Shown: positions 8,395 through 55,652 of the stretch, piece by piece | How positions within the stretch are numbered: the first letter of the stretch is position 1 | Layout of the letters: the number at the start of each line of letters is the position of its first letter | Assembly (NCBI GenBank): GCA_900759105.1 | Contig: CAAETY010000147.1 | Location: 7,431-71,430 of the forward strand | Length of the DNA stretch: 64,000 nucleotides | Source of the DNA: Peptococcaceae bacterium | GTDB lineage: Bacteria > Bacillota > Peptococcia > Peptococcales > Peptococcaceae | Reading direction: 5' to 3' | The notes under the pieces: generated by a model | What the model saw: the letters and a program-made list of their open reading frames with translations, nothing else | Told to the model about the DNA's origin: nothing | Databases searched by the model: none | Program-made: the position numbers and the translations under genes

Positions 8395-9279
8395 ATGAAG
8401 GGAAGTGTGCCCATGCTATCGAAATATGACATTTTTTGTAAAGTGGTTGAATACGGTGGCTTTACCAAGGCTGCCAACGCCATTAGCTATTCTCAGAGTG
8501 CGGTGAGCCAAACAGTGAAAAATTTGGAGCAAGAGCTTGATTTGACCTTGTTGAATCGTGGGAAGGACGGTATTCACCTAACCGGTGACGGCGAAGCAAT
8601 TTTTCCCTATATTCAAGGCATTGCCAACGCTGAAAAGGCACTGGTGCGCCGTCAAAAAGAATTGCACGGTTTGACAAACAGTGTCATTCGCATTGGCACA
8701 TTTACGAGTGTGAGCCGCAATTTGCTTCCGGGCTGGATGGTTGATTTTAAGGCGCTGTATCCGGATATTCGCTTTGTCTTGGAGCAAGGGGAGTACACGA
8801 CCATCAGCGAATGGGTGCAAAATGATGTGGTCGACTTTGGCTTTGTGAATATGCATGCCGCTCCTGATATGGAAGGGCAGCTGCTTTACACCGATGAAAT
8901 GTGTGCGGTGCTGCCGTTGGATCATCCTTTTGCAAAAAAAGAGGTGGTTAGCTTGCAGGCGCTTGCCGAGGAACCCTTGATTTTATTGGACGAAGGGGAA
9001 TTTAACAGTCCCTTGCGTGCCTTTGAGCAAGCGGGGCTTGAGCCGCAAATCGCCTATGAAGTGTATGACGATTACACCATCATCGCCATGGTTGAAAAGA
9101 AGCTCGGCATTTCTATGATGTATCGCAAGGTGCTCTGTGGCTACGAAGACCATGTGGCGTTGTGCCCGGTGGATGCAGACCTGAGCCGCCCGGTGGGCAT
9201 GATTTGGAATAACTGGGACACCCTTCCGATTGCCGCACGCCGTTTTATCGAATTTATTGCCAAGCAACCGATTGCGTAA
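8395..9279 (+). CDS. LysR family transcriptional regulator
   Basis: N-terminal HTH (FTKAANAISYSQSAVSQTVKNLE) plus a LysR substrate-binding domain; divergent from azlCD. The start may be at 8413. Confidence 0.85.
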   Translation: MKGSVPMLSKYDIFCKVVEYGGFTKAANAISYSQSAVSQTVKNLEQELDLTLLNRGKDGIHLTGDGEAIFPYIQGIANAEKALVRRQKELHGLTNSVIRIGTFTSVSRNLLPGWMVDFKALYPDIRFVLEQGEYTTISEWVQNDVVDFGFVNMHAAPDMEGQLLYTDEMCAVLPLDHPFAKKEVVSLQALAEEPLILLDEGEFNSPLRAFEQAGLEPQIAYEVYDDYTIIAMVEKKLGISMMYRKVLCGYEDHVALCPVDADLSRPVGMIWNNWDTLPIAARRFIEFIAKQPIA

Positions 9280-9538: not shown

Positions 9539-11425
9539 ATGGCTGAAATCAAATATACACACAAAGACCATATCATTACCTTACAAAAGCAAAGCGAAGA
9601 AGCATTCCTCGCAGAATTTGCTGCCGGTGACTACACTCTCACCAACCCACTCGTAAAACTCAACCCTTACATCATTTGCCCACTCAGCGCAATGATTCTC
9701 TTCAAGACCCCACGTGCAGAAGAAGTAACCATTATCGTTCACGGTAAAGAAGCTGCAGGCGACATCTGCCACACCTTCCCTGCTGCTTACGAACACATTC
9801 TTCCTATCTACGGTCTTTATGCAGACTACGACAACCAAGTTGAAATCGTACTCCAAGACGGCAGCCGTCACACCGTAACCATCAAGACTGAACCAAAGAT
9901 GGAAGGCGTACCTGAATCCACTTCTTGCGACACCACCCCGGAATACATGGGTGACAACATGGTATTCCTCACCGCTTCCATGCGTTCCTTCCCTGTAGGT
10001 TATGACTACAAAGGTGATCTTCGTTGGTACTGCGTAGAAAACCTCGCATTTGACATCAAGCGTATCGCTAACGGTCACATCCTCGTTGGGACCGAACGTC
10101 TTGTGAAGATGCCTTACTTCACCACCGGTTTGTATGAAATGAACTTCGGCGGTAAAATCTTCAAAGAATATGTTATTCCATGCGGTGGTTATCACCACGA
10201 CCAATTCGAAATGGAAGACGGCAACATCTTGGCGCTCACCTTCGATTTCTACTCCGGCACTGTTGAAGACGTTTGCGTACTCTTAGACAGAAACACCGGC
10301 GAAATCTTGAAGAAATGGGATTACAAAAACGTGCTCCCACAACAAGGCCCTGGCTCCGGCAGCCAAACCGAAGAAGACTGGTTCCACAACAACGCTGTTT
10401 GGTACGACAAAAAAACCAACTCCTTGACCTTCTCCGGTCGTCACGAAGACGCTGTTATGAACATTGACTTCGAAACCGGCGAACTCAATTGGATTATCGG
10501 TGACCCGGAAAACTGGCCACAAGAATATGTGGACAAGTATTTCTTCACCCCTGTTGGCGATGGTGACTTTGACTGGCAATACGAACAACACGCTTGCGTG
10601 GTTCTTCCTGACGGCGATGTGATGATGTTCGACAACGGTCACTATCGTTCTAAGAACCCAGATAAATACTGGGCAAACCATGACAACTTCTCCCGTGGCG
10701 TACGTTATCGCATCAACACCGATGACATGACCATCGAACAAGTATGGCAATATGGGAAAGAACGCGGTGCGGACTTCTTCTCCCCATACATCTGCAATGT
10801 TGAATACTACGATGAAGGCCATTACATGGTTCACTCCGGTGGTATCGGCTACTTGGACGGCAAATGCTGCGACGGCTTTGCTGTTATGATGGCAATGCAA
10901 CCGGAATACAAGGATCGCGTGACCTTCAACTCCATCACCTGCGAATTGGTTAACGATGAAGTGGTATATGAACTCCATGTTCCTGCAAACCTTTATCGTG
11001 CAGAAAAATTGCCACTCTACTATGCCGGTGAAACCTTCGAACAAGGTGCAGGCGAATACGTAGGTGGCCTCATCGAAACCAAGACCACCCGCATGAAGAT
11101 GAAAGCTGAAGAAACCGGCGAAATCGTTCCGGATCATTATCAAGCAAACATCGTAGAAGAAGAAGACCGCTTCCTCTTCAACGCTATCTTCGAATCCGGT
11201 GAAATGGCACAGCTCTTGCTCATTGATGGCGAAGGCAACATCCGTCGTTACCCAATCGAGACCGTGACCCAAGAATTCACCGCAATGTGCGTAGGGACCT
11301 TCCAAAAGGCAGACCCACGTAACATCGATACCTTCATCAACAAGACCGGCCTTGTTGGTCCACAAACTGTGAAGCTCTTGTGCGAAGACAAGATTTACGA
11401 TACCGGTATTGTTGTTAACAAGTAA
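9539..11425 (+). CDS. aryl-sulfate sulfotransferase (ASST family, PAPS-independent)
   Basis: 628 aa; length and beta-propeller-like sequence features fit the AssT family. Confidence 0.7.
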   Translation: MAEIKYTHKDHIITLQKQSEEAFLAEFAAGDYTLTNPLVKLNPYIICPLSAMILFKTPRAEEVTIIVHGKEAAGDICHTFPAAYEHILPIYGLYADYDNQVEIVLQDGSRHTVTIKTEPKMEGVPESTSCDTTPEYMGDNMVFLTASMRSFPVGYDYKGDLRWYCVENLAFDIKRIANGHILVGTERLVKMPYFTTGLYEMNFGGKIFKEYVIPCGGYHHDQFEMEDGNILALTFDFYSGTVEDVCVLLDRNTGEILKKWDYKNVLPQQGPGSGSQTEEDWFHNNAVWYDKKTNSLTFSGRHEDAVMNIDFETGELNWIIGDPENWPQEYVDKYFFTPVGDGDFDWQYEQHACVVLPDGDVMMFDNGHYRSKNPDKYWANHDNFSRGVRYRINTDDMTIEQVWQYGKERGADFFSPYICNVEYYDEGHYMVHSGGIGYLDGKCCDGFAVMMAMQPEYKDRVTFNSITCELVNDEVVYELHVPANLYRAEKLPLYYAGETFEQGAGEYVGGLIETKTTRMKMKAEETGEIVPDHYQANIVEEEDRFLFNAIFESGEMAQLLLIDGEGNIRRYPIETVTQEFTAMCVGTFQKADPRNIDTFINKTGLVGPQTVKLLCEDKIYDTGIVVNK

Positions 11426-12717: not shown

Positions 12718-13051
12718 CGTAAATCCTCCTTACAGCTTGTATCATCATTGCATGTTCAAATCGTTCTCGAAACGTTTCTGGTTGGAATTTGTTGTTGTAA
12801 TGGAGTATAATTCGGATTTCTTCATTCGTCAATATTTTCTGTGCTTTCCAAACAGTCTGAAAATTTATAATACGGATAAATGGCGTTCGAAATGTTAGAA
12901 TAAGATGCAGCATTTATGTTATTATTTGTAGATTTTATTGAAAAAAGGCAGAAAAATCCACATATAATGCGCAAAAGTACGCGTATAGAAAACAAAACAC
13001 AGATATGCACATGCATAATGGACAAAGTAAAAATTTCACAAAGTTAAAATC

Positions 13052-13092
13052 CCCGTATCCTAGCGTGAATACGGGGATTAAGTATATGTTGA
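13052..13092 (-). terminator. rho-independent terminator
   Basis: ATCCCCGTAT...ATACGGGGAT hairpin downstream of the patatin gene. Confidence 0.6.
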
Positions 13093-13118
13093 AATTTATG
13101 GTCATTCGGTATTTTTCT

Positions 13119-13994
13119 TTAGGCGTGTTCCATCCAGTCGAGCCATTCTTCCAGATGATTTTTTGCTTGTTCGCGACCCAGTGCCCAAGTTTTTTCCAAA
13201 ACCTCACGCTCATGATCGGTACGACTCACCGGCATGGTTTCCGGATAAAGCACCAAAGCGCGCCCATCGGCTTCCATTTTTTCAATGAGCGCCATTTGTA
13301 TATTGTATCGTTCGGCACGTAATTTCAAGGCCTCGGAAACTTTTGGATGGTCGCGGTAGAAGTATTTGGCGATTTTTTCACTGGTAGAGGTTTCGCGGCG
13401 ATACCCACGCTGGTGGGTTGGGAGGATGACAAAGCGTTCAATGCCGGCATCAATCGCCGGTTGAATTACAAAGCATTCGCGCACACCGCCGTCAACATAG
13501 CCGATGCCATCAATATAGGTCGGTGGCATCATCATAGGCAGTGAGCTGGAAGCACGGCAAATACGCATGAGGTCGCGGTAGCTGGAAATATCCGCTTGGT
13601 GCCAATAACGGATTTCACCGGTGTCTTGATTAAAGGCACTTAGCGCGATTTCTACGCCGCTATCGTGGAAAATGCGCCAATTTTCCTCCATCCCTTCTTC
13701 ATTGTAGAAAGCTTCTTCGTAGATGGAAAAGGAATTAAAATAGCCTTCACCGCGTAATAAGGGCTTCAAGCCTACATTGTTTGGATCGGAGGAAAGGTCG
13801 ATAAAACCTGTGCGCATACGTTCAATATTTTGCATGACATAGTTAACGGCAATGGTGGTGCCGGCGCTTACGCCGGTAACGTATGGAAATTTAATACCTG
13901 CTTCAAGCATCACCGAAGCCATACCACCGGTATAAACGGCACGCATACCGCCGCCTTCGCAGATGAGCGCCGTATTGGGAATGAAGTGCTGCAT
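13119..13994 (-). CDS. patatin-like phospholipase
   Basis: GGGMR oxyanion motif, GVSAG nucleophile elbow, and a downstream DGG Asp. Confidence 0.8.
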   Translation of the reverse strand: MQHFIPNTALICEGGGMRAVYTGGMASVMLEAGIKFPYVTGVSAGTTIAVNYVMQNIERMRTGFIDLSSDPNNVGLKPLLRGEGYFNSFSIYEEAFYNEEGMEENWRIFHDSGVEIALSAFNQDTGEIRYWHQADISSYRDLMRICRASSSLPMMMPPTYIDGIGYVDGGVRECFVIQPAIDAGIERFVILPTHQRGYRRETSTSEKIAKYFYRDHPKVSEALKLRAERYNIQMALIEKMEADGRALVLYPETMPVSRTDHEREVLEKTWALGREQAKNHLEEWLDWMEHA

Positions 13995-14169
13995 AAACAG
14001 AGCTCCTTTCAATCATAAAATGTGCAATACTGCACGTGGTTCGTGTTTATTATAGCACAATCCACTTGTTTACTTGCATTAAAAAGCCTGCCGCCGAAGC
14101 AGCAGGCGAGGGGGAGCAATGATCAATTGAATCGGTGGACGTTCGCATTTCATGCGCATGTCCACACGC

Positions 14170-14523
14170 TTATTTCTTCTTTTTGTCTTTTTTCTTTGCG
14201 TTCTTCTTCGCTTTTTTATCTTTTTTGGCTTTTTTAGCCTTTTTAGCAGTTTTTTTCTTTTTTGCTTTCTTTTTATCTTTTTTCTTCTTGTCCTTTTTGT
14301 CGTCCTTTTTCTTCTTTTTCTTGTCTTTTTTCTTTTCGACAAGTTCAGTTACCAAGACGGCAAGTGGCGCTTCTTCTGCCTGAGGGGCATCTTCAGCGCA
14401 TTCACCGGTCAAAGGAATGGCTGTTTCAGCAAGAATTTCTTCGGTGGTGTCTGCACATGGGGTATCGTTTACGCCTGCAATGATTTCCTCTTCAAGTCGT
14501 TCTTTTTCATTGATGGTAGACAT
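14170..14523 (-). CDS. acidic N-terminal / poly-lysine C-terminal intrinsically disordered protein
   Basis: 117 aa; good RBS (AAAAAGGAG) embedded in the end of the PPK2 gene; the start is 4 nt after the PPK2 stop; C-terminal roughly 55 residues are about 75% Lys. Confidence 0.5.
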   Translation of the reverse strand: MSTINEKERLEEEIIAGVNDTPCADTTEEILAETAIPLTGECAEDAPQAEEAPLAVLVTELVEKKKDKKKKKKDDKKDKKKKDKKKAKKKKTAKKAKKAKKDKKAKKNAKKKDKKKK

Positions 14524-14526
14524 GGT

Positions 14527-16062
14527 TTAGGACTCCTTTTTTTCTTTGCCTTGTGTGCTATCGTCTTTCAATGCTTTGGTGGCATCTTTTTCAAGATGCA
14601 CATTAACACCTTTCTTTTCAAGTGCCTTGGTTGCGGCTTCGACAAAATGTTTCAAAACCTCAATACGGGCATATTGCTTGTTCATTCCCGGAATAATCGT
14701 CCAAGGTGCATGAATGGTCGAGGTGCGTACAATCATGTCATTCATAGCGTCGGTATAATCATCGAATTTTTCGTGATTACGCCAATCCTCATCGGTAATT
14801 TTATAGGTTTTTTCCGGTGTGTTTTCGCGTTCTTTGAAACGCGCCAATTGCTCTTCCTTGTCGATGACGAGCAGGAATTTCAAAATAACGTAGCCGTCCT
14901 CAACGAGGGACTGTTCCATCTCGTTGATTTCCGAGTAGGCCTCTTGCCAACGTTCTACCGGTGTAAAGCCTTCGATACGTTCTACCATAACGCGCCCGTA
15001 CCAGCTGCGGTCATAAATGGTGAGATGACCGGGGATTGGGAAGGTTTGATAGAACCGCCAGAGATAATGGTGAGAAAGCTCGTATTTTGTTGGTGCGGCG
15101 GTTGTCGCCACTTGATAACTGCGTGGATCCATCAGACGTGTCAAACGTTTAATGCAACCACCCTTGCCGGCCGCATCGGTGCCTTCAAAGACAGCAATCG
15201 TTGGGATTTTGTGACGGTAGAGCTGATAAAGCAAATCAGCCGCTTGCTTTTGCAGTGGACGTAATTGTGCACGATATTCTTCTTCGCTGATGGACTTGCT
15301 TAAATCGACCAAATCCAACGGGCGGGTGATGGTTGGTGGCAACGGCTGCGTGCAGGATGGCGCCGGTGTGTTAAGATGCCATTGCAAGCTGTGAATCACA
15401 GTGACCAACACCTGCTGAGATGTGCGCTTTTTGTCCGGCCCGATTTCAATAACGCGCCATGGACAAGAAAGCGTTGATGTATGATTGATAATGCGTTCAA
15501 AATGATGACGGAATTTATCGTAATGCTTGAGCTGATGATGGTCAAAATCCGAAAGCATGTAACGACGATTTTCATCCTTGGAAATTTCCTCGATGTTTTT
15601 CTCCATATGCTCCTTGCTTTGGTCTAAGAAGATTTTGACAATCATACAGCCGTCATCGTTTAAAAGACGTTCTAAGAAGGAAATATCGCGAACGGCATGC
15701 ATAAATTCCACGTCATCCATATCAGGGTGGCGCATCAATTCACGGTAATAGCTGTGGTCAAAAATTCCAACTCGTCCATGAATAGGGAGCGATTGGAAGA
15801 AACGCCAAAGCATAGGGTGCTCCTTGTCTGTTTCCGTCGCATCCTTGAATTGCGAGAGATGGAAATAACGTGGGTCAATTTCACGTACAAGGTCATTTAA
15901 AATAAGCCCCTTGCCGGTGGCTTCCCAACCGGAAAGAACAATAAGCAAGCTGCGATCGGTATCCTTGAGCTGGCGCTGCAAAGTTCCCAAGAGCTCACCC
16001 AGTTCGGAGATTTCCATATCCATCATTGGATCGTCGATGGAAAAGGCCATTTTTCTGAGCAT
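14527..16062 (-). CDS. two-domain polyphosphate kinase 2 (PPK2; polyphosphate:AMP/NDP phosphotransferase)
   Basis: 511 aa with two PPK2 domains; canonical Walker A (FEGTDAAGKGG) in the second domain and a degenerate one (SGWEATGKG) in the first. Confidence 0.85.
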   Translation of the reverse strand: MLRKMAFSIDDPMMDMEISELGELLGTLQRQLKDTDRSLLIVLSGWEATGKGLILNDLVREIDPRYFHLSQFKDATETDKEHPMLWRFFQSLPIHGRVGIFDHSYYRELMRHPDMDDVEFMHAVRDISFLERLLNDDGCMIVKIFLDQSKEHMEKNIEEISKDENRRYMLSDFDHHQLKHYDKFRHHFERIINHTSTLSCPWRVIEIGPDKKRTSQQVLVTVIHSLQWHLNTPAPSCTQPLPPTITRPLDLVDLSKSISEEEYRAQLRPLQKQAADLLYQLYRHKIPTIAVFEGTDAAGKGGCIKRLTRLMDPRSYQVATTAAPTKYELSHHYLWRFYQTFPIPGHLTIYDRSWYGRVMVERIEGFTPVERWQEAYSEINEMEQSLVEDGYVILKFLLVIDKEEQLARFKERENTPEKTYKITDEDWRNHEKFDDYTDAMNDMIVRTSTIHAPWTIIPGMNKQYARIEVLKHFVEAATKALEKKGVNVHLEKDATKALKDDSTQGKEKKES

Positions 16063-16231
16063 AATCCTCAGTCCTTTACATTTATTTAATAAATCCTTGA
16101 TTTTTACTCAGTATATCATAAAGAATACGAGGCAGATAGCGAAAAATGGTAAAAAAATGACAAGATTCTGTTAAGTTCTCAACATGATAGAACCTGTTGT
16201 TGTAAAAATGAACATGCAAAAGAAGTGCACA

Positions 16232-16262
16232 AAAAAACGCCTCCCTAGCGGGAAGCGTTTTG
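16232..16262 (-). terminator. rho-independent terminator
   Basis: CGCTTCCC...GGGAGGCG hairpin, T-run on the minus strand, downstream of brnQ. Confidence 0.6.
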
Positions 16263-16274
16263 AATATAAACCAA

Positions 16275-17621
16275 TCAGTCGCTTTGACCTTCGTCGTAAA
16301 CTTCGAAAACAATTTCGCTGGTATCTTTGCGACGTGGGATGAAGGATGCAAGGATAGCACAAACAATAGCAGGAATCACCCAAGCTAAGCCAAAGCTTGC
16401 AAGTGGAAGCTTTTGTTCAAAGCCAACCAATGCATCAACCCAAGCACCACTAACGCCGAGGCTGCCCATGGTGGAGAGTGCATCGATGATACTGATCAAG
16501 AATGCCCCTACAACAGCGCCGATGTAAGCGTTTTTGTTTTTGATGTATTTGTCGAAGCAAGTGCAAACGGTCAATGCCATGAGCACTGGATATACCAAAT
16601 AGAGGAAAGGTACTGCCAAGTTGATGATTGCGGTAACCCCAAGCACGGAGATTAAGCAGGATACAACAACAGTGATAACAACAACGAGCTTATAGCTTAA
16701 TTTGCCACCGGACAATTCATTGAAGTATTGACCGGTAGTAACGCAAAGACCGACAGCGGTGGTTAAGCAAGCCAAGGTGATTGCTGCGGAGAGGCAGTAA
16801 GCACCAATGTTGCCGAGAAGACCTTGGGTCATGCCAACGAGCAAAGCACTACGTTCGATGTCAGCCGGGAAAGCGCCGGTGCAACCTGCGCCACCGAAGG
16901 TGAGACCGCAGTATACCAAGCCCAAAAGAACCGCTGCAATAACACCAGTGCGGATAGACATGGAAAGCTGCTCTTCGCGGTTGTTATAGCCACGTGCCAC
17001 AATATTGGAAAGTGCAACGCCGGCGAACATGGTAGCTGCCAAACCGTCCATGGTTTGATACCCTTCGGTGAAACCGCCTGCAAAGTTGTAGGCAGGATCT
17101 GCTGCAGTCCCCGGAGTCCCAACAGGATTAACAATAGCGGCAATAATAATGGAGAATAAGGTAAGGATTAAGAATGGGGTTAAGAATTTACCCAAACGGT
17201 CGACAACCTTAGAATTGTTAATGGAAAGAACAAGCGCGAAAGCAAAGAAGATGATGGAGCTTATGGTAATACTTACATTAGGAAGAATTGGGAATACCCC
17301 AACTTCATATACAGTTGCTGCGGTACGTGGGATTGCAAACATTGGCCCAATAGAAAGAACCACCACAAACCCTAATACGCGACCGAACGGACGCCCAACG
17401 TGGCGTGCCATGGTCATGATGGTACCGCCACTACGAAGTACTGCATATACAGCAAGTAATGGCAAACCAACACCGGTCAAAACGAAACCAATTAACACTG
17501 GTAGCCAGTTTTCGCCGGAATGAAGCCCCAAGTAAGGTGGGAAAATAAGGTTACCTGCCCCCAAGAACATAGAAAACAGGGCAAAACCAACGATCAGTGT
17601 GTCTTTTGTTTTGCGATTCAT
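16275..17621 (-). CDS. brnQ: branched-chain amino acid transport system II carrier (LIVCS family)
   Basis: 448 aa, 12 TM helices, N-terminal GAGNLIFPP signature. Confidence 0.85.
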   Translation of the reverse strand: MNRKTKDTLIVGFALFSMFLGAGNLIFPPYLGLHSGENWLPVLIGFVLTGVGLPLLAVYAVLRSGGTIMTMARHVGRPFGRVLGFVVVLSIGPMFAIPRTAATVYEVGVFPILPNVSITISSIIFFAFALVLSINNSKVVDRLGKFLTPFLILTLFSIIIAAIVNPVGTPGTAADPAYNFAGGFTEGYQTMDGLAATMFAGVALSNIVARGYNNREEQLSMSIRTGVIAAVLLGLVYCGLTFGGAGCTGAFPADIERSALLVGMTQGLLGNIGAYCLSAAITLACLTTAVGLCVTTGQYFNELSGGKLSYKLVVVITVVVSCLISVLGVTAIINLAVPFLYLVYPVLMALTVCTCFDKYIKNKNAYIGAVVGAFLISIIDALSTMGSLGVSGAWVDALVGFEQKLPLASFGLAWVIPAIVCAILASFIPRRKDTSEIVFEVYDEGQSD

Positions 17622-17996
17622 CTAAATAACACTCCCTTTTAATAAATTTTGTCGTGAATTCACGCAACCCATTTTTTTGATGATAGCTTGATAGTTATTC
17701 TGCGTCAAAAATGGATAAACTCGTCAGAATATGAAATATGTCCCCTTATCAAACATATAAGACATATTTTAGGGGATACTTTTGAAATTTGCAATAGAAC
17801 TTGATACTTTGATATATGAGATTCCTATATGGACTGTATAAGTACAGATTGTAGATAAAACAAACTGTACAAGAACAGACGTCTGTTTTAGAGAAATAAT
17901 CTCTTACGAACAGTGCTTGAATCAAAGGGAACACACCAGTATACTAAAGAAATAATCAAAAAATCAACATATAAAGTAAAACAGAGAGGACCTATT

Positions 17997-19004
17997 ATGA
18001 TACAGATTCAAGAAGCCATTCTTCATTTTTACGACGCTGCTGCATTGAGCGAAACCTTATCCGACACCACCTTGGACCTTCGCAGTGGGCTCATGGTAGA
18101 CTATTTGGCGCACCATATCGAACGCGGTCTCAAAGACCCCGCAGCAAGCCATGCCCAATTTTCCCAGACCAGCGCTGTGCCGGAACGTCTCAAAACCTTC
18201 ATTAAAGGGGATGAAGGACTGGTTGATTTCTCGAAATGGGCAGCGGGCCTGTTTTTTGGCGAGCTCCGCGACCTCGGGGTAGAAGAAAATTACCATTTGG
18301 CACTTGCGCGTTTTCACACAGAAATCGGCACCCCATATTTGGCAATTTTGGCCCTTGCCGATAAGCTTGCCTATACCCATCAGGTAGATGCCGCTGACGA
18401 TGGCACCCTTTCTGCCTCCATTGCTGTGCATCGCTCCATTATGCCACAGCCAACCCAACGTATTAAGGGGTATGCGTTTATTAATTTGGAAGACTTGGGC
18501 ATTCGCTTGTGTGACATCAAGGTAAAATTTGAAAAAGAAACCATTCTTCTATTTGAAGAAGTGCTTTTGGGTTGTCTGACTGAACCGTCAAGCCGTGAAA
18601 GCTACCGCCAGATTCGCCAAATGACTTTGGCCGTAGCGGACGACTATTCACAAGACGGTGTGGAAGCCTTTACACGCGCAAAAAAATTTCTCGCCGATAA
18701 CGCCGATAACAGCGACCTCGTTGATACCCACACTTTGGCTGAAAAGGTTTTTCCAAACTCCATTCAAATGCAAAACAGCTTTATGGGCGAAGTAAGCTAC
18801 GCAAATCTGCCGGAAAATCTCGTTTTGGAGCAAGAATTTGCTCGCAAGCAAACCGCTACCCACAAGCTCGTGTGCGACGGCGAAATCACCATCACCATTC
18901 CGGCCGAATGGTATGACGATCCCGACCGTGTGGAAATTCGTATGGAAAGTGACGGCACAACCACCATCACCTTGCGTGGCATTGAAACTATGACCGCTAA
19001 ATAA
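17997..19004 (+). CDS. putative nucleoid-associated protein (YejK/NdpA-like)
   Basis: The N-terminus MIQIQEAILHFYD resembles the NdpA N-terminus; about 335 aa from this Met. The ORF-track start at 17913 has no RBS. Confidence 0.4.
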   Translation: MIQIQEAILHFYDAAALSETLSDTTLDLRSGLMVDYLAHHIERGLKDPAASHAQFSQTSAVPERLKTFIKGDEGLVDFSKWAAGLFFGELRDLGVEENYHLALARFHTEIGTPYLAILALADKLAYTHQVDAADDGTLSASIAVHRSIMPQPTQRIKGYAFINLEDLGIRLCDIKVKFEKETILLFEEVLLGCLTEPSSRESYRQIRQMTLAVADDYSQDGVEAFTRAKKFLADNADNSDLVDTHTLAEKVFPNSIQMQNSFMGEVSYANLPENLVLEQEFARKQTATHKLVCDGEITITIPAEWYDDPDRVEIRMESDGTTTITLRGIETMTAK

Positions 19005-27456: not shown

Positions 27457-28272
27457 GTGATTGAGATGAAAAAGATAATGGCAACGATGCTTGCCGTTTT
27501 GATGTTTATTGGTTCCTTTGCTATTGCACAACCGAGTCAAGCACAGACTATGGAGGTGTTGATTGACGGGCTGACATTGGAAACCGACCAGCCGCCGATT
27601 GTTTACCAAAGTCGCACCATGGTGCCATTGCGTGCGATTTTTGAAGCCTTGGGCGCAAAAGTGACCTGGACAGCAGGCAGTGGCTCCATTTATTGCCGCC
27701 GAGATGGCGCGTCCATCAGCCTCAAGGTGAATGACAGCACCGCCTATATCAATGGGGAGCGTGTGACCTTGGATGTACCGCCGCTTGCTGTCAACGGACG
27801 TACCTTGGTGCCGGTGCGTGTGGTAAGTGAGGCCCTGGGCGCTACCTGTGAATGGGTGCGCGAATCGAATCGCGTATATATTACCTCCAACGACGGGTAT
27901 GTGGGCGTGATGCGTGTGGATTATGATGCGCTTCTGCCAAGCGAATTAAAGAAGGTATCACAGAGTGCATTGGGCGTTATTCATAATGTAAGAGCGATTT
28001 ACGAAAACACGTCACCGTATCCGATTGTGGACTACAAGCTGATTGGCTCAAACAAGGAAACCGGTAATCGTCACTATTTCACCTGCTATGATACCATCAT
28101 GCCGGGCGAGGATTCTCCAAGAATGGAGTCCTTGTTGGCCAGAGCTGAATATGTGGATGATATTCAATATCAAAAGCTGAGCGTGCAGTTGAAAACATCC
28201 TATGGAAAATTCCGCGTAGAGTATGATTGCAGATTGCAAGAAATTGAATCTGTGAATAAGGTAACAAATTAA
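27457..28272 (+). CDS. secreted protein with two copper-amine-oxidase-N (stalk) domains
   Basis: Signal peptide; repeats MVPLRAIFEALGAKVTW / LVPVRVVSEALGATCEW. Confidence 0.55.
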   Translation: MIEMKKIMATMLAVLMFIGSFAIAQPSQAQTMEVLIDGLTLETDQPPIVYQSRTMVPLRAIFEALGAKVTWTAGSGSIYCRRDGASISLKVNDSTAYINGERVTLDVPPLAVNGRTLVPVRVVSEALGATCEWVRESNRVYITSNDGYVGVMRVDYDALLPSELKKVSQSALGVIHNVRAIYENTSPYPIVDYKLIGSNKETGNRHYFTCYDTIMPGEDSPRMESLLARAEYVDDIQYQKLSVQLKTSYGKFRVEYDCRLQEIESVNKVTN

Positions 28273-35678: not shown

Positions 35679-36971
35679 TTACTGTCTGGTAAAGACCACT
35701 GCGCCCGGGGCGCCGCCGGTGCCTGGGAGGTAGTTCACGTCATAGCCCATGACCTCTGCGACAAAACGAATTGGAACCATGGTGCGGTTGTCGGCGCTGA
35801 CAAACGGTGTGGTGTCCATTTGGTAAACGGTGCCGTTAACGGCATAATTGTTGTAGCCGATGGACATGGTCAGCCGTGTATCGCCCATGGTGGTGGTGAT
35901 GGTTTGTACGGTGCTGTCATAGTCCACGCGAGCGCCCAAAAGCTCGCCGATGGCGCGGAATGGTACGAAGGTGCGATTATCCCTTACACATGGCGGGCTG
36001 TCGATTTCCATGGTACGACCGTCTACATTCATTTCATTGCTGCCGATGGTGAGGCGCACTTTTTCCGGTCGGTAGGTGTAGCTTTTGAGCGGAATGGTTA
36101 CCGGTGTTTCCGATAGAGAGCATCGGAGCTGGAGGGTGGCATCTTTTTCGATGGTGCCGTGTACCCTGAAACGGACAATGCCGTTGGCATCGGTGCGCAC
36201 CAGAACATTTGAAATAGAGAGGGACGCCGTGTTGGAGCTGATGTAAACAGGCACATCGCGTCCCACAGGTAGGCCGTTGTTGCGCAACAAGGCGAGCTGC
36301 ACCTCTGTTGGGGTGGCGGCACTGGCGTCAATGGAAATTGGTGTGGAGAGGGTTTGGTTGCGTGGGTTTGCAATTGGGAATGAATCCACGCTGATGCCGC
36401 GAATTTTGGTTGAAACAATCATCATGGCGACATCTGCTGCCGGGGTAGGGTTAACCTTGACGATGCGTGTGGCGCTGTTACCGCCGGTGAGCTCGTATGG
36501 CCAGTAGTTGGTGATAGCTTCCGGGTCAACGCTGCCGGTAGGCATATACAGCGTATGCAGGGTGTAGGTGCCGGTGGCGTCCAAGGTGAAGTTCATCTTT
36601 TGTGATTTGATAAGGGCGCGCGCATCCATAACAAACACGCCTTGGCGTGCAGTTTCGTGGATGTAAACGCCTTGGGGCACGGAAATACCGACCAAATCCA
36701 GACCGCTTGCGACAAGGTCATCGCCATCGGTGGCCCACACATAAACCTTTCCGGTAGGATTGGCAGAAAGGGCGTTGCCGTGGGCGTTTTTGAGGGTGAT
36801 GATGTAGTTAAAGCTTTGATACGGATCAACAACGGTATTGTTGGCGCCGGTCGTAACCACAGACTGGGATGGCGATACGTCGCTATCCGCTGCTAGGGCA
36901 GCTGTTGCCAAGCAGGGAATGGAAAAAAGCGCCAGCAGAAGCGCCAGAGATTGCAAGATGCGTTTTTGCAT
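35679..36971 (-). CDS. secreted protein: N-terminal Ig-like (Big-type) region plus two C-terminal copper-amine-oxidase-N (stalk) domains
   Basis: Signal peptide; C-terminal repeats FVPFRAIGELLGARVDYD / MVPIRFVAEVMGYDVNY. Confidence 0.55.
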   Translation of the reverse strand: MQKRILQSLALLLALFSIPCLATAALAADSDVSPSQSVVTTGANNTVVDPYQSFNYIITLKNAHGNALSANPTGKVYVWATDGDDLVASGLDLVGISVPQGVYIHETARQGVFVMDARALIKSQKMNFTLDATGTYTLHTLYMPTGSVDPEAITNYWPYELTGGNSATRIVKVNPTPAADVAMMIVSTKIRGISVDSFPIANPRNQTLSTPISIDASAATPTEVQLALLRNNGLPVGRDVPVYISSNTASLSISNVLVRTDANGIVRFRVHGTIEKDATLQLRCSLSETPVTIPLKSYTYRPEKVRLTIGSNEMNVDGRTMEIDSPPCVRDNRTFVPFRAIGELLGARVDYDSTVQTITTTMGDTRLTMSIGYNNYAVNGTVYQMDTTPFVSADNRTMVPIRFVAEVMGYDVNYLPGTGGAPGAVVFTRQ

Positions 36972-37074: not shown

Positions 37075-38763
37075 TTAGCTAATTTGCTGAATAAAGAGAA
37101 TGGTTTTGTCAGCGCTCAAGGCATTTTTGCCGTAGCCGCTGATATAGTAGGAATGGTCGTTAATGCCATAGGTGCCGGCAAAATAACCATCGTCCATTCC
37201 GTAGAAATTGAACCCACTTGCATTTGCAGGGGCGTCGCCTACTTCAAGGGCAATGCCCAGCACTGCGGAAAGATCGGTCACACTCATGGATTCAGGGGCG
37301 TTTTTTATAACAAAACCCAAATCCGCCCATACCACACCGGTTGCAACAGCAGTGTTGGATGGGAAGGTTGGCATATCGGGAATTTCAACCTTATATTCCT
37401 TGTCTTCCTTATCTTCCTGCTGCTCCTGGGTGGTGCCGGTGTTTGGTTCGGTGGTAGTGGTTCCACCGGTGGTGCCGCCGTTGCCTGTGCTAGGCTCGGT
37501 GGTTGGCTCATTGGTCGTTTCACCCGGTGTAACAGGGCTGGTATTGGTAAGCGGCACAACCTTATACGCTTCGCCGTTGCTTTGATTGAGGGATACCGTA
37601 TTGTAGGAGGTGCCGGTGCTTTGCTTGAGCGGCACGGTTTCGCCGGAAAATTGAACGGCAAAGTTCCCGCCATCGGCACGGAAGATAATGTACTGGTCAT
37701 CACCCACAACACTCAAAGAGCCCGGACCGTAGGTGCCGGCAAGGTCAGCGTAGGTGCGGCCGACAATGTTAAAGGCTTCGGTGTTGACGGAAAGGCTGTG
37801 GGTCATGGTGCCGTCCTGCCCCACACGACCGGCAATATAACCGGATTCAAACGCCGGATTGGTAATAAGCCCACCATTTGCATCCTTGCTATCGGCCAAC
37901 TGAATGGTATCGGCATTTACAAGCACAAAGGTATAGGTGCTACCGGTTTCATCCTCGAAAATGTATTGGTTATCCTTGAAATTGAGCTGGTAAACCTTAT
38001 CCTCGATAGTCCAACGATAGCGACGGGTACCGATTTTTTCAATCACACTACCGGTGTTGTAGTGACGCCAATGCCCAACAATGGTATCTTCGGCAAGACT
38101 GGTATCCGGTGCGACAGTATCTGCATTTTTGACCTGAGCAGCCGGATCTACCGGCGCATTATTGCCAAAATGGCTGCTAAAAAGATAAACCGCTGCCAAT
38201 GCGGCGAAGACAATCCCGACAACAAGCGCGGCAATGGTCAGGATTTTTTTGCGCTTTTCGGGACTCATCCTTTTTATCAGTGGCTCCTCGATAGAAGAAA
38301 TATCAATATCATCGAGTGCCACTTCCTCATCAGAAACGGCATCATTTTCATCAAGGGCATCGTGTGGGATAGCATCTTTATCGGACGCTTCTAAAGTATC
38401 ATCATCGGCGTCAGCAAGGGTATCCTCTAAGATAGCATCCTCGTTGGAACTATCCAATGAGGCATCTTCGCTTACGGCGTCATCGATTTCAGCGGTCGCT
38501 GTATCGGTGGTAAGGTCGTCAGCCATTTCATTTTCCGGAGTGGCAATGTATGCGTCAATCGCATCCGGTGTTTCTTCGGCGTCCTCCGAAGGGGTATCTA
38601 TATCGTTGGCACTGCTTGCTTGATTGGATTCAGCCTCATCATGCAAATCCTCAAGCGGTGGCATGACACGGGTCAAATCACTGACCGACTCATCGAGCGG
38701 CTTGCCGCATTTGGTGCAAAAGAGCCCGTCTTGGTCTTCTGCCTGACAGTGTGGACATTTCAT
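37075..38763 (-). CDS. zinc-ribbon / acidic-linker / single-TM membrane protein with a large extracytoplasmic domain
   Basis: MKCPHCQ...CTKCG zinc ribbon, a roughly 150-aa Asp/Glu-rich disordered linker, the TM helix ILTIAALVVGIVFAALAAVYLF, and a 370-aa outside domain containing a Thr/Gly-rich linker. Confidence 0.55.
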   Translation of the reverse strand: MKCPHCQAEDQDGLFCTKCGKPLDESVSDLTRVMPPLEDLHDEAESNQASSANDIDTPSEDAEETPDAIDAYIATPENEMADDLTTDTATAEIDDAVSEDASLDSSNEDAILEDTLADADDDTLEASDKDAIPHDALDENDAVSDEEVALDDIDISSIEEPLIKRMSPEKRKKILTIAALVVGIVFAALAAVYLFSSHFGNNAPVDPAAQVKNADTVAPDTSLAEDTIVGHWRHYNTGSVIEKIGTRRYRWTIEDKVYQLNFKDNQYIFEDETGSTYTFVLVNADTIQLADSKDANGGLITNPAFESGYIAGRVGQDGTMTHSLSVNTEAFNIVGRTYADLAGTYGPGSLSVVGDDQYIIFRADGGNFAVQFSGETVPLKQSTGTSYNTVSLNQSNGEAYKVVPLTNTSPVTPGETTNEPTTEPSTGNGGTTGGTTTTEPNTGTTQEQQEDKEDKEYKVEIPDMPTFPSNTAVATGVVWADLGFVIKNAPESMSVTDLSAVLGIALEVGDAPANASGFNFYGMDDGYFAGTYGINDHSYYISGYGKNALSADKTILFIQQIS

Positions 38764-38960
38764 TGTATCATCTCCTTTGGTAAAGAGAACGTATTTAATC
38801 ACTTCATTATCCCAAAAAGTGACACTTATCGCAAGAGCCTATTATATTGGGATATGGTAAAAACAAGAAGACACTGCCTAGAGGTTTTTCTTGTGCTATA
38901 ATGAAAGCATAATACATAAAGCGCGCCGCCTGCACGACGCGGAAGGAAGGAGATTCTTTT

Positions 38961-39611
38961 ATGAACGAAGAAAAAACCCCGATGTCCTGTATTGATTGTC
39001 ACGTGCTCCATTGCCGTTACCCGGAAAAAGGCGAAGCACCGAAATTTTGCCTCACCGAAAATATTCCGGCGGAAACCCAACAACGTGCCATGGATTACCT
39101 CATGAGTCCGGAGGACAACCGTATCGCTGTCGCTGCCGCTGAAGTAGAATATGAAGGCTACTGCAAACGCACCCGCGTAGAAGAAATCATCGAATTTGCC
39201 AAAAAGATAGGCGCCAAAAAGCTTGGCATCGCAACCTGCATGGGCCTCATCGACGAAGCACAAATTCTGGCAAAAATTCTCCGCGCCAACGGTTTTGAAG
39301 TATATGGCGTAATCTGCAAAGTAGGCTCCAACAAAAAGAGCAGCATCGGCATCCCGGTAGAATGCGAAGAAATCGGGCCATACATGTGTAACCCTGTGCT
39401 CCAAGCCGAAGCATTGAACGACGCCAACACCGACCTCAACATCATCAATGGCCTCTGCGTTGGCCACGACAGCCTCTTTATCAAACACTCCAACGCCATC
39501 GTTACCACCGTTGTAACCAAAGACCGCGTACTCGGCCACAACCCATGCGTGGCACTCTATCAAGCAGACAAATACTTCAAGAAAAAATTCTTCCCTGAAG
39601 AAAACAAGTAA
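38961..39611 (+). CDS. Cys-rich putative metal-binding protein (DUF1847-like)
   Basis: 216 aa; strong RBS GGAAGGAGG; Cys-rich N-terminus CIDCHVLHC. Confidence 0.4.
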   Translation: MNEEKTPMSCIDCHVLHCRYPEKGEAPKFCLTENIPAETQQRAMDYLMSPEDNRIAVAAAEVEYEGYCKRTRVEEIIEFAKKIGAKKLGIATCMGLIDEAQILAKILRANGFEVYGVICKVGSNKKSSIGIPVECEEIGPYMCNPVLQAEALNDANTDLNIINGLCVGHDSLFIKHSNAIVTTVVTKDRVLGHNPCVALYQADKYFKKKFFPEENK

Positions 39612-40073
39612 TTGACAGAAGGAAGGGCTGACAGCATGCATTACAAAAATGCGACGATGGATGATTTTGATGTGGCGTTTGATTATATCGAAAAGCTCTG
39701 GACCTACAACACCTACGACAAGGATGTGATTCGTAAGGTGTATGCCGATGTGCTTAACGATGCCGATAGCTTTGCGTTCTTTCTTGTAGACGATGAAGGA
39801 GGCTATCACGGTTTTTGTCACGGCACCTATTTTAATACGTTCTGGCTTTCAGGCATGACCTGCTATGTTTCCAGTATTATCACCAATGAAGATGAACGTG
39901 GACAAGGCAACGGCATCAAGCTCATGGACCATGCTCGCGATCTTGCCAAGGAACGCGGCTGCAAAGGCCTTGTGCTCGATAGTGGCATGCCACGCACCCA
40001 AGCCCATCGCTTTTATGAAAAATACGGCTTCGAAAAAAGCTGTTACGGCTTTGACTATTACTTGGAGCCATAA
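39612..40073 (+). CDS. GNAT family N-acetyltransferase
   Basis: Acetyl-CoA-binding motif (R/Q)GQGNGIKLM and GNAT core; the start may be at 39636. Confidence 0.75.
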   Translation: MTEGRADSMHYKNATMDDFDVAFDYIEKLWTYNTYDKDVIRKVYADVLNDADSFAFFLVDDEGGYHGFCHGTYFNTFWLSGMTCYVSSIITNEDERGQGNGIKLMDHARDLAKERGCKGLVLDSGMPRTQAHRFYEKYGFEKSCYGFDYYLEP

Positions 40074-42759: not shown

Positions 42760-42946
42760 CAATGAAAGACTCCTTTATCATAGTATTAACTTCATTTTAC
42801 TGTAATGGTAGGGGTTGGTGCAACTGCCAGAAAAGCACTTTTATTATTTCCGTAAGATGTTATAATTTAATTGATACCCCGCTTTTGCAATTAAGGGTAA
42901 ATGAGGACGGATGACGTGGTGTGTGACAATGACAGGAGGGTCATTG

Positions 42947-44155
42947 ATGAAAATGATAAAGAGCAAAAAATTATTGGCTGCAACCTTGGCGTTTTCCTTG
43001 ATGCTGACAAGCGCACCGGCGTTTGCTATGGAACAAGAGGCGTCGGTAGAGCCATCGACAGAAACGCAAACACCGGACCAATCCGAGGCTCAAGCGCCGG
43101 AAGTGACCTTGACCGTTCCGGCCTACAGCGATGGTCACTACGAAATGGATGGCACAATGGTTGTTAGTGGGCTCCTGCTGGTCAATAAACAATATTCCTT
43201 ACCGGCGGCGTATGCGCCAAGTCATGCCGGTGGTGCCGGTCAAAGCTCAGCCCTTTACGGCGAGGCCAATCAAGCGTTGCAGCGCTTTTTGGCAGATTGC
43301 AATGCGCAAGGCAACAGCATGTATGTGCTCAGCGCTTACCGCAGCTATAATGTACAATCCTGGCTTTTCCAAAATTACGCAGCGATGCACGGCACCGACA
43401 AAGCCAATACATTTTCTGCACGTGCCGGTCAAAGCGAACACCAAAGCGGACTTTCTTTTGACGTGGGGGATGCTCGTTACAGCGGACACAATTTGCAAAT
43501 CAGCATTGAACAATTTCCCGGTGTGCAATGGATGATGAAGCATTGCGCCGATTATGGGTTTATCTTGCGTTTTCCTAAAGGCAAGGAAAATATTACCGGC
43601 TATCAATATGAGCCATGGCATTTCCGCTATGTGGGCGTAAAAGCGGCGCAGGAAATTAAAGCGAGTGGTTTAACCTTAGAAGAATTCATCGGTGCCGTAG
43701 GGGATCGTAAGATTGCCCTCGGTCATAGCGATAACAATATGCACATTGACGGCGAGGGTAGCAAGGTATCCAGTTATACCATCGACCAATTGAACTATTT
43801 CCGTTTGCGCGATTTGGCTACCATCTTAAAGGGTACCGACGTTGCCTTTGAAGTGGGCTACGATGCGGAAAAGAAATTGATTTCCATTACCAGCCACACC
43901 GATTATACCGATAATCCAACCTTGATTCGTTTGGATCGCAACGATATTGCCGTGCCAAACACCTTGTCTGTCATGGTGGATGGGAAAATTGTGCAGCCAA
44001 AGGCCTACACGGTAGACGGCTTTACCTATTTTAAGCTTCGTGATTTGGGTGATTTATTGGGCTTTGGCGTATCTTGGGACAGCACGCTTCGCAGTATGGT
44101 GATTGATACCAAAGGAGCGCCACCAATTAAAAGCTTGATTGACGTAGAACAATGA
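42947..44155 (+). CDS. peptidase M15 (VanY-like D-Ala-D-Ala carboxypeptidase) with two C-terminal copper-amine-oxidase-N (stalk) domains
   Basis: Signal peptide; S-x-H-x2-G-x-A-x-D and EPWH zinc-site motifs; C-terminal repeats LNYFRLRDLATIL / FTYFKLRDLGDLLG. Confidence 0.75.
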   Translation: MKMIKSKKLLAATLAFSLMLTSAPAFAMEQEASVEPSTETQTPDQSEAQAPEVTLTVPAYSDGHYEMDGTMVVSGLLLVNKQYSLPAAYAPSHAGGAGQSSALYGEANQALQRFLADCNAQGNSMYVLSAYRSYNVQSWLFQNYAAMHGTDKANTFSARAGQSEHQSGLSFDVGDARYSGHNLQISIEQFPGVQWMMKHCADYGFILRFPKGKENITGYQYEPWHFRYVGVKAAQEIKASGLTLEEFIGAVGDRKIALGHSDNNMHIDGEGSKVSSYTIDQLNYFRLRDLATILKGTDVAFEVGYDAEKKLISITSHTDYTDNPTLIRLDRNDIAVPNTLSVMVDGKIVQPKAYTVDGFTYFKLRDLGDLLGFGVSWDSTLRSMVIDTKGAPPIKSLIDVEQ

Positions 44156-54731: not shown

Positions 54732-55652
54732 TTAAGCGAGGTATTGAGCATGTCCTTCTTCACTACCCTTTCCGGAAAATGAAATAGATCCTACATTAAA
54801 AGAAACCTCCACTGTACCGGGTGTCCAACTATGAAAGTAATATGCATTAATTAAAATCGTTCCGGAGGTCACAGGGCTGGCATTCGCCACAAAAGCTTTA
54901 CCAGCCTGACAATACTGTGGACTCCAAGATGTGGCATGTAACATTTCAATATCAAATTTCACATTACCATTACTTGTATATACAGGGTAGATGCGTTTAT
55001 TGGTATCCTCTAAATATCCATTCTCATCTTTATATATTAATTTGGCAGTGCTAGAACCTTGAACTACATAGCCATTAGAAATACATGCAGCAATTGGATC
55101 TGTATATTTTACACTTGGTGCACTATCCCAATGCCAGTAAATATTGTAATTACATTGTCCTGATGTACGAGAAACACTTGCTATATTAAATGCCAATTTC
55201 GAAGAGGCCGCTCTTACATCGGCATCTGATAGGTTTTCATAATTTCCTGATTTAATATTAGCGATAGCTTCTTTGGAAAGTCCTTTACTCACTAGTGCTG
55301 TCTTAGAAAGTTTCGCAGCATTATCTAAGACAATCTTTTTAGTACTTTCCGTTCTCAGCTTTTTTATATCATTTTCTTCCATTTTAAGATTTATTAATTC
55401 TTTGTCAGACATTTTTTTCATTTCTTCAATAGAATCAATTTCATAGCGTATTGACGCACCAGGTAGACTTGCAATCTCTTCATAAGTCAGGGTATCGTCG
55501 TTTGCTAAAAAGCCCTCATAAGTGCTATCCATTTCCAAAACTTGTGTCATATGAGAATTTTGTGCTGTAGCTGCACTTAGTGGTAATGCTAAACTCATCA
55601 TTAATAATACACTACATCCAAGCGCTACTGTTCTTCTTAATGTTTTTTTCAT
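54732..55652 (-). CDS. secreted hypothetical protein (island cargo)
   Basis: 306 aa; signal peptide with an AxA-type cleavage site; low-GC codon usage unlike the surrounding genes. Confidence 0.5.
   Translation of the reverse strand: MKKTLRRTVALGCSVLLMMSLALPLSAATAQNSHMTQVLEMDSTYEGFLANDDTLTYEEIASLPGASIRYEIDSIEEMKKMSDKELINLKMEENDIKKLRTESTKKIVLDNAAKLSKTALVSKGLSKEAIANIKSGNYENLSDADVRAASSKLAFNIASVSRTSGQCNYNIYWHWDSAPSVKYTDPIAACISNGYVVQGSSTAKLIYKDENGYLEDTNKRIYPVYTSNGNVKFDIEMLHATSWSPQYCQAGKAFVANASPVTSGTILINAYYFHSWTPGTVEVSFNVGSISFSGKGSEEGHAQYLA

Follow-up and report, generated by a model that had tools for sequence, protein, structure and literature searches.

The closest described counterparts of the locus considered here, a class II PPK2 gene and the small open reading frame (ORF) directly behind it in a 64,000-nucleotide (nt) stretch of Peptococcaceae bacterium contig CAAETY010000147.1 (hereafter the window), are proteins in which a polycationic segment meets polyphosphate (polyP) or another storage polymer. 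The Ppk1 protein of Caulobacter crescentus carries a 22-residue positively charged C-terminal tail, which the enzyme needs in order to join polyP granules and without which granules are not produced normally (PMC3806658). In Pseudomonas, the Lys-rich protein AlgP resides on polyP granules and influences how many of them form and how they are spaced; the fraction containing these granules is also enriched in the two-domain Ppk2C (PMC9239181). More generally, lysine-dense stretches bind polyP non-covalently, to an extent that scales with Lys density (PMC12077175, PMC12345225); the positives in polyP-dependent gel shifts had at least 9 Lys, 4 of them in a row, in 20 amino acids (aa) (PMC12077175). 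In the bacteria that are usually studied, PASK or Lys-dense motifs are reportedly uncommon (PMC12345225). A small accessory protein, PhaM of Ralstonia eutropha, binds the polyhydroxybutyrate (PHB) granule, PhaC1 and DNA (PMC3556143).

In the window, the PPK2 gene (14527-16062) is followed directly by an ORF of 117 aa (14170-14523), and the two form a bicistronic unit on the minus strand. The product of the small ORF has an acidic head and a poly-lysine tail. It resembles the Caulobacter Ppk1 tail in being a short polycationic, non-catalytic segment tied to a polyP-metabolising kinase, and one related PPK2 (P0053, see below) displays the same topology, with the segment in cis at its C-terminus. 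However, whereas the Ppk1 tail comprises 22 residues in cis on a PPK1, the tails of the family described here span 42-105 residues (30 in a within-species deletion variant, L005) and belong to a separate, probably coupled polypeptide with an acidic head. Unlike Ppk1, the partner is a class II PPK2, a consumer of polyP, and there is no sequence homology to the Ppk1 tail. With AlgP and PhaF the small protein shares a Lys-rich low-complexity C-terminal domain, and Ppk2C is the closest solved homologue of the window PPK2. In AlgP, a helical N-terminal domain of 124 aa is joined to KPAA repeats rich in Pro and Ala; the protein binds DNA and is not reported as ppk-linked (PMC9239181). The window protein, which shows no homology to it, combines a proline-free tail of 72% Lys with an acidic, predicted-disordered head and a strict linkage to PPK2. 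The KPAA repeats and helical N-domain that typify the AlgP/PhaF class are both absent from it (no Pro in the tail; no family match).

The tail lies well above the thresholds of the KPM/PASK proteins, a class defined operationally rather than by homology: a minimum of 9 Lys per 20 aa including 4 or more in a row, or D/E/S/K making up 75% or more of a 20-aa window (PMC12077175). It reaches 15 Lys in 20 aa with a longest run of 6, exceeding the Lys density of the published gel-shift positives, and 35 of 98 windows are of the PASK type. The known KPM/PASK proteins (EngA, SrmB, YihI, RNase R, Nsr1 and Top1) have other functions and bear Lys-rich patches (PMC12077175, PMC12345225), whereas the window protein is one half Lys tract, and the only association that can be seen for it is with an enzyme of polyP metabolism. 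With PhaM the small protein would share an analogous logic, applied to another storage polymer; PhaM belongs to a different polymer (PHB) and enzyme, shows no homology and is not a diblock polyampholyte. The C-terminus of PhaM is Lys-rich. The CHAD-domain phosins are also candidate accessory proteins of polyP granules, CHAD being a folded, helical, His-rich domain; unlike them, the small protein has neither CHAD nor any other Pfam domain (E <= 0.01), and it gave no match to NCBIfam, PHROGs or PADLOC. A full-text literature search returned no description of a PPK2-coupled Lys-rich protein, and the published survey of PPK2 gene neighbourhoods covered domain-bearing neighbours only (PMC11968564). 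That a polycationic segment can meet polyP is already known from the Ppk1 tail, AlgP and lysine-polyP binding; what is new is a dedicated, apparently translationally coupled diblock partner of a class II PPK2, with a conserved motif and a pattern of fused and unfused versions.

The two-gene unit and its products

The initial annotation, made from the letters of the window and their ORFs, had recognized a two-domain PPK2, and database comparisons bear this out. The 511-aa product is covered by PF03976 in two stretches (Pfam; E 3.9e-118), as expected of a tandem-domain enzyme, and its residues 5-483 align over the full length with residues 9-496 of PA3455/PPK2C (PDB: 3CZP; E 3e-105). It is assigned to the polyphosphate:AMP phosphotransferase type; its top NCBIfam model, TIGR03708, scores just short of the curated cutoff (536.4 bits as against 547.65), and NCBI names close homologues phosphate--AMP phosphotransferase. 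The Walker A motif of the C-domain, of the form GxDxxGKG, reads FEGTDAAGKGG, as against FEGNDAAGKGG in 3CZP, and the N-domain has SGWEATGKG where 3CZP has NGIEGAGKG, with Glu replacing the catalytic Asp as in PA3455. The DRSWYGRV segment is conserved between the two proteins, and the residues diagnostic of class II appear to be present. The signature residue of that class is a Gly after the Walker B DRSWY (PMC8776046); G367 would be this glycine of DRSWYG, a mapping which assumes a tag offset in the PDB chain. AlphaFold2 (AF2) models the core of the enzyme with a predicted local distance difference test score (pLDDT) above 90. The last ~26 residues (14527-14604) constitute a charged extension that is missing from outgroup PPK2s.

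On the coding strand the junction reads ...GAA AAA AAG GAG TCC TAA ACC ATG. As first reported, the small ORF begins 4 nt after the PPK2 stop, its ATG opening at the fourth base behind a 3-nt spacer, and its ribosome-binding site is embedded in the 3' end of the PPK2 gene: a Shine-Dalgarno (SD) sequence, AAGGAG (14533-14538), lies within the last PPK2 codons, 9 nt 5' of the ATG. The gaps separating the two genes in the family are -8, -4 (an ATGA overlap), 3, 6, 14, 15, 23 and 29 nt, two of them overlapping, and at all orthologous junctions an SD-like sequence (AAGGAGG, GGAAG, AAAGGGG, AAGGAG or AGGGAG) stands 5-14 nt, mostly 6-10, before the start. Such a geometry is typical of translational coupling, and the earlier proposal that the small ORF is coupled to PPK2 is therefore probably correct. 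The two window genes share a frame, which several orthologous pairs do not; a fusion protein made by stop-codon readthrough is ruled out by the orthologues in which the gap (-8, -4, 14, 23 or 29 nt) puts the two genes in different frames.

The bicistronic nature of the unit is indicated by terminator-like hairpins on both sides of the pair. At its 3' end, an intrinsic terminator (14086-14107) with a 9-bp stem of which 7 pairs are G-C, a TTCG loop and a T run lies 63 nt past the stop of the small ORF, and a GC hairpin with a T run of comparable kind also lies 3' of the orthologue in L098/L099. At its 5' end, a terminator-like hairpin after the upstream brnQ gene (16241-16255) forms the boundary of the unit. 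A consensus scan detected a promoter-like site 5' of PPK2 (TTAACA, 17 nt, TACCAT; 16146-16174) with 9/12 consensus matches, which is of low confidence, the count of such sites in the region being not above the shuffled expectation. An Rfam scan of 13000-18000 found zero RNA families, and hence no riboswitch or leader.

The small protein consists of two blocks of opposite charge. The head (residues 1-63; 14335-14523) has 17 D/E as against 2 K/R and a net charge of -15, in agreement with the strongly acidic N-terminus described at the outset. The tail (residues 64-117; 14173-14334) contains 39 K, 7 D, 6 A and 0 Pro in 54 aa, for a net charge of +32, and its Lys content is close to the value of about 75% in K/D/A repeats initially given for the C-terminal half. 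The ORF is the sole K-dense one in the window; as a whole it uses 24 AAA and 16 AAG Lys codons with a longest A run of 7, and the repeat periods of the tail DNA (9, 12, 18, 21 and 27) are all divisible by 3. Its original characterization as a disordered protein is supported only in part: from the family alignment, AF2 models the head with pLDDT 44-57 and draws the tail as a single long helix with pLDDT 82-95. At such a charge this helix would appear improbable as a stable structure unless a polyanion neutralises it. A profile search of the PDB with the small protein recovered only compositional matches, the KKE/D tails of nucleolar Nop56, and a search of a plasmid collection gave no match. Two further ORFs overlap the lysine tail, namely a 370-aa Phe-rich antisense ORF (14152-15264, plus strand) and an 87-aa K/R-rich ORF in an alternative frame (14079-14342, minus strand); both are by-products of the AAA/AAG run and not genes.

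Pairwise Nei-Gojobori comparisons among L013, L014 and L015 gave ratios of non-synonymous to synonymous substitution rates (dN/dS) of 0.27-0.46 for the head and, where dS was unsaturated, of 0.07-0.10 for the tail. Behind the tail values stand 8-11 synonymous and 6-7 non-synonymous differences, for the most part exchanges between AAA and AAG, as the tail consists mainly of Lys codons. These ratios indicate that the frame is translated and under purifying selection, in other words that the small ORF is a real gene. The corresponding values for PPK2 are 0.02-0.05, the head thus evolving 5-10 times faster than the enzyme. In the orthologous tails AAA and AAG are interleaved, and A runs never exceed 8.

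Despite this divergence, with heads only ~25-40% identical across lineages, the charge architecture is retained: the net charge of the head is mostly -15 to -32 (-7 in L097 and 0 in the divergent L095), that of the tail +18 to +37, and every tail peaks at 13-16 K per 20 aa. The head also contains a conserved motif with the consensus [ILV][LI][VI]-x-G-[ST]-E-[ND]-A-I-[ILP]-x-[DE], represented in the window by EEILAETAIPLTGE (residues 28-41; 14401-14442). In the alignments its positions A35 and I36 never vary and E33 hardly ever does, and the core [DE]xAI[ILVP] occurs in 13/15 lineages, as against 2-11% of shuffled heads. A second copy of the motif is seen in some heads (L016, L019 and L092). 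A divergent orthologue of 191 aa (L095, 3039-3614) contains a QPLVKKEE-like repeat four times and splits its poly-Lys into two tracts that follow different segments; its motif is reduced to AVVLVEASED. In one subclade, comprising the small ORFs of L013, L014 and L015 (also P0013-P0019), the lysine tail ends in a conserved acidic cap, KP[VA][ED]AVED or AQPAVVVED; P0017 has lost nearly the whole tail in frame and retains this cap.

Phyletic distribution and charged PPK2 tails

Using the window PPK2 as a query on one genome per GTDB species, we recovered 80 PPK2 loci. The 11 closest of these (88-59% identity) all come from metagenome-assembled genomes of uncultured Peptococcaceae in gut-type samples, and 10 of the 11, two of them cut by contig ends, have an acidic-head/poly-Lys ORF directly after PPK2. 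No K-dense ORF occurs on either flank of the 69 PPK2 loci from other taxa, which include Atopostipes, Aerococcus, Alkalibacterium, Lachnospiraceae, Peptoniphilus and Methanomicrobiales. Across the 80 loci, K-dense ORFs are restricted to Peptococcaceae and are always directly downstream of, or fused to, PPK2. Reading the surroundings of other family members and PPK2 homologues contributed L001-L009, L092, L093, L095 and L097. Intact orthologues directly after PPK2 were found in the window, L001-L009, L010-L019, L092, L093, L095 and L097, amounting to an intact copy kept in at least 16 lineages of uncultured gut Peptococcaceae; the ORF is neither absent nor out of frame in any crown-clade relative examined. 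Conservation of the pairing in other genomes, raised in the initial annotation, is therefore seen throughout the crown clade of Peptococcaceae but not in the loci of other taxa: the pairing is no general feature of PPK2 but the property of a single clade of gut Peptococcaceae, all uncultured.

A word-indexed search of 5.8 billion proteins yielded 12 relatives of the small protein and a profile search 20, all with the head-plus-tail layout and 67-146 aa in length; one of them is deposited as 'hypothetical protein [Peptococcaceae bacterium]'. An exhaustive HMMER search with the head profile against 1.84 billion cluster representatives returned only 11 proteins at E <= 1e-3 (67-142 aa). Every family member whose context was read adjoins PPK2, and position and tail density are kept in all lineages compared. 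The family is thus narrow and, as far as sampled, never found apart from PPK2. It can be defined by a location directly 3' of a two-domain PPK2, a motif-bearing acidic head and a tail density of 13 K or more per 20 aa, all of which are seen in the window protein.

The PPK2s of Peptococcaceae (window, P0027-P0053) all have a charged low-complexity C-terminal extension of 10-118 aa beyond the catalytic core, whereas the outgroup enzymes of Atopostipes, Aerococcus and Jeotgalibaca end at the core without one. In an approximate neighbour-joining tree of PPK2 cores, the lineages lacking the small gene fall at the base of the Peptococcaceae clade, and the crown clade has the separate gene. Among the basal forms, P0048 (L090) has a K/E-rich tail of 63 aa on PPK2, P0049, P0050 and P0052 have charged tails of 50-64 aa, and P0051 has a short one. 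The protein P0053 (L020/L094), found on 5 contigs, is 603 aa long and contains a 59% identical PPK2 with a 118-aa, acidic-then-K-rich C-terminal extension; no small ORF lies downstream of its PPK2. The small ORFs that precede PPK2 in L090 and L094 encode helix-turn-helix- or sigma-like proteins and are unrelated. The distribution of tails fits an origin of the small gene by fission of, or recruitment beside, a disordered PPK2 tail, the hints of fission being the TAA-ACC-ATG junction of the window, which leaves both ORFs in one frame, and the fused or charged tails of the basal lineages.

Proposed function and competing explanations

Taken together, the linkage, the selection, the charge blocks, the motif, the in-cis analogue and the literature point, with slightly better than even probability in our estimate, to the small protein being a PPK2-dedicated polyP-binding adaptor; polyP binding by its tail, contact between its head and PPK2, and an effect on localisation or activity are what we infer from them. 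The tight coupling to the enzyme gene favours such an enzyme-specific adaptor over a bulk granule scaffold, and the occurrence of an analogous acidic and Lys-rich segment fused to PPK2 in a sister lineage would tie the module functionally to the enzyme. In the mechanism that we envisage, the small protein would be made from the mRNA of PPK2 by coupled translation, and its poly-lysine tail would bind the polyanionic polyP electrostatically and multivalently. The conserved hydrophobic motif of the acidic head may contact PPK2 or another partner, whereby PPK2 would become tethered to, or concentrated on, polyP chains or granules. This tethering could raise the local substrate concentration for polyP-driven phosphorylation of AMP to ADP, or set where the enzyme acts. 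The acidic block, for its part, may shield the tail from nucleic acids as long as no polyP takes its place, or its target may be the positive substrate channel of PPK2.

Several observations weigh against this proposal. When PPK2 and the small protein were modelled with AF2 as one artificial chain (PPK2+T+small-protein), the head remained undocked with pLDDT <50; the multiple sequence alignment behind this model was shallow and unpaired, and left out the divergent small proteins, which MAFFT had misaligned over PPK2, so that the outcome is uninformative more than it is evidence against docking. A lysine tail binds any polyanion, including DNA, RNA, ribosomes and teichoic acids, and the case for polyP specificity comes from gene context alone. 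Genes for PPK1, PPX and CHAD proteins, sought within the window, were not found. The extension of P0053 has no detectable homology to the small-protein family (hhalign probability 0.4), a result by which its reading as a 'Rosetta stone' fusion was downgraded to that of an analogous fusion; as a functional analogue of the small protein, it could be coincidental. Lastly, the tail is frameshifted in a number of metagenome assemblies (P0007, P0008, P0021, P0023, P0024, P0147 and P0148; L098 and L099, 2001-2441, belong to these variants). In P0024 the frameshift arises because the repeat, compared with that of L014, has lost 73 nt, the same deletion occurring in two samples, and the shifted tail frame stays K/R-rich. 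These variants, a minor caveat, may reflect repeat collapse in assembly or real alleles; if not artefacts, they may mean that some strains can dispense with the tail.

The alternative that survives best, though we consider it unlikely, is that the small protein is a general polyanion-binding, histone H1-like protein associated with the nucleoid or ribosomes, its adjacency to PPK2 being inherited synteny and its connection to polyP at most that of a polyP-nucleoid bridge, as proposed for AlgP. The tails of AlgP, PhaF and PhaM do bind DNA (PMC9239181, PMC3556143), Lys-rich polyP-binding proteins of E. coli are related to ribosomes and translation (PMC12345225), the sole similarity in the PDB is the compositional one to the Nop56 KKE/D tail, and an NA37 nucleoid-associated protein is encoded in the neighbourhood (17913-19004). 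Yet a small gene without a promoter of its own and always -8 to +29 nt from PPK2 would be an odd arrangement for an abundant chromatin protein. Moreover, it is never found away from PPK2, the sister lineage carries an equivalent tail on PPK2 itself, and the tail lacks the proline of H1-like KPAA or PAKKA repeats.

A somewhat less probable alternative is a charge-switch regulator of PPK2, in which the head would mimic polyP in the substrate channel or neutralise its own tail, and polyP, by capturing the tail, would relieve or alter the inhibition and so gate its own consumption. A substrate channel with many positive residues is common to PPK2 enzymes (PMC8776046), the head is consistently acidic in all lineages but L095 and has a motif suited to a specific contact, and coupled translation would suit a near-stoichiometric regulator. 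Against this, there is no docking signal in AF2 and the first segment of the divergent L095 protein is net-neutral; in addition, inhibition and recruitment are indistinguishable here, and the idea overlaps largely with that of an adaptor. Equally doubtful, in our judgement, is a diblock amphiphile with its Lys block buried in Mg-polyP granules and its acidic block forming an outer brush that limits granule fusion and size and repels DNA, with the motif docking PPK2 at the surface; this family might have come from fission of a PPK2 tail.

By far the least probable is that the ORF is spurious or decaying, an A-rich low-complexity 3' region of the PPK2 transcript that is open by accident, for although the low-complexity repeat, its length polymorphism, the frameshifted assembly variants and the lack of a Pfam or NCBIfam family would agree with this, the low dN/dS of the tail is accompanied by abundant synonymous change, the start, SD, motif and charge architecture are kept even where PPK2 identity has fallen to 64%, the Lys codons are a mixture of AAA and AAG without A runs above 8, as a translated Lys tract would show, and the terminator follows the small ORF rather than preceding it. 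A PPK2-dedicated adaptor remains the interpretation that we prefer.

Genomic neighbourhood and significance

The pair is followed on the same strand by a gene for a patatin-like phospholipase with DUF6363 (13119-14012), which has a promoter-like TATAAT of its own past the terminator and keeps to the vicinity of PPK2 in nearly every Peptococcaceae locus, the basal L090, L091 and L094 among them. On the other side, the gene for the nucleoid-associated protein mentioned above, of the NA37/YejK type and on the plus strand, is two genes from PPK2 and divergent from brnQ, a synteny kept in L001-L009. An arylsulfotransferase (ASST) gene (9539-11425, plus strand) adjoins that of a LysR regulator (8395-9279, plus strand), and this pair is kept in the syntenic L001-L008. 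Two tandem pairs of paralogues, both on the plus strand, encode CitMHS-family transporters (3853-5331/5584-7065) and ABC_sub_bind substrate-binding proteins (19637-20674/20745-21794). Three Cu_amine_oxidN1 proteins (27457-28272, plus; 35679-36971, minus; 42911-44155, plus), one of which is fused to a VanY D,D-carboxypeptidase, look like components of the cell envelope. The window further contains an ISL3-family transposase (DDE_Tnp_ISL3 with a zinc ribbon; 56044-57321, plus strand) and three minus-strand ORFs of 575, 331 and 306 aa without a Pfam match (37075-38802, 38826-39821 and 54732-55652, respectively).

The hypothesis of a PPK2-dedicated adaptor is clade-restricted and conceptually unsurprising. 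Nevertheless, polyP biology is short of protein partners that are well defined, above all in Gram-positive anaerobes, and the genome context by itself singles out a compact two-block candidate of 117 aa that is linked to one enzyme. It raises the questions of whether a poly-Lys tail is enough for targeting to polyP, whether an acidic counter-block tunes that binding, and whether tethering alters the kinetics of PPK2, the last being of practical relevance as PPK2s are widely used for ATP regeneration. The locus also exemplifies a fast-evolving, predicted-disordered protein in which the charge pattern and one short motif, rather than the sequence, are conserved.

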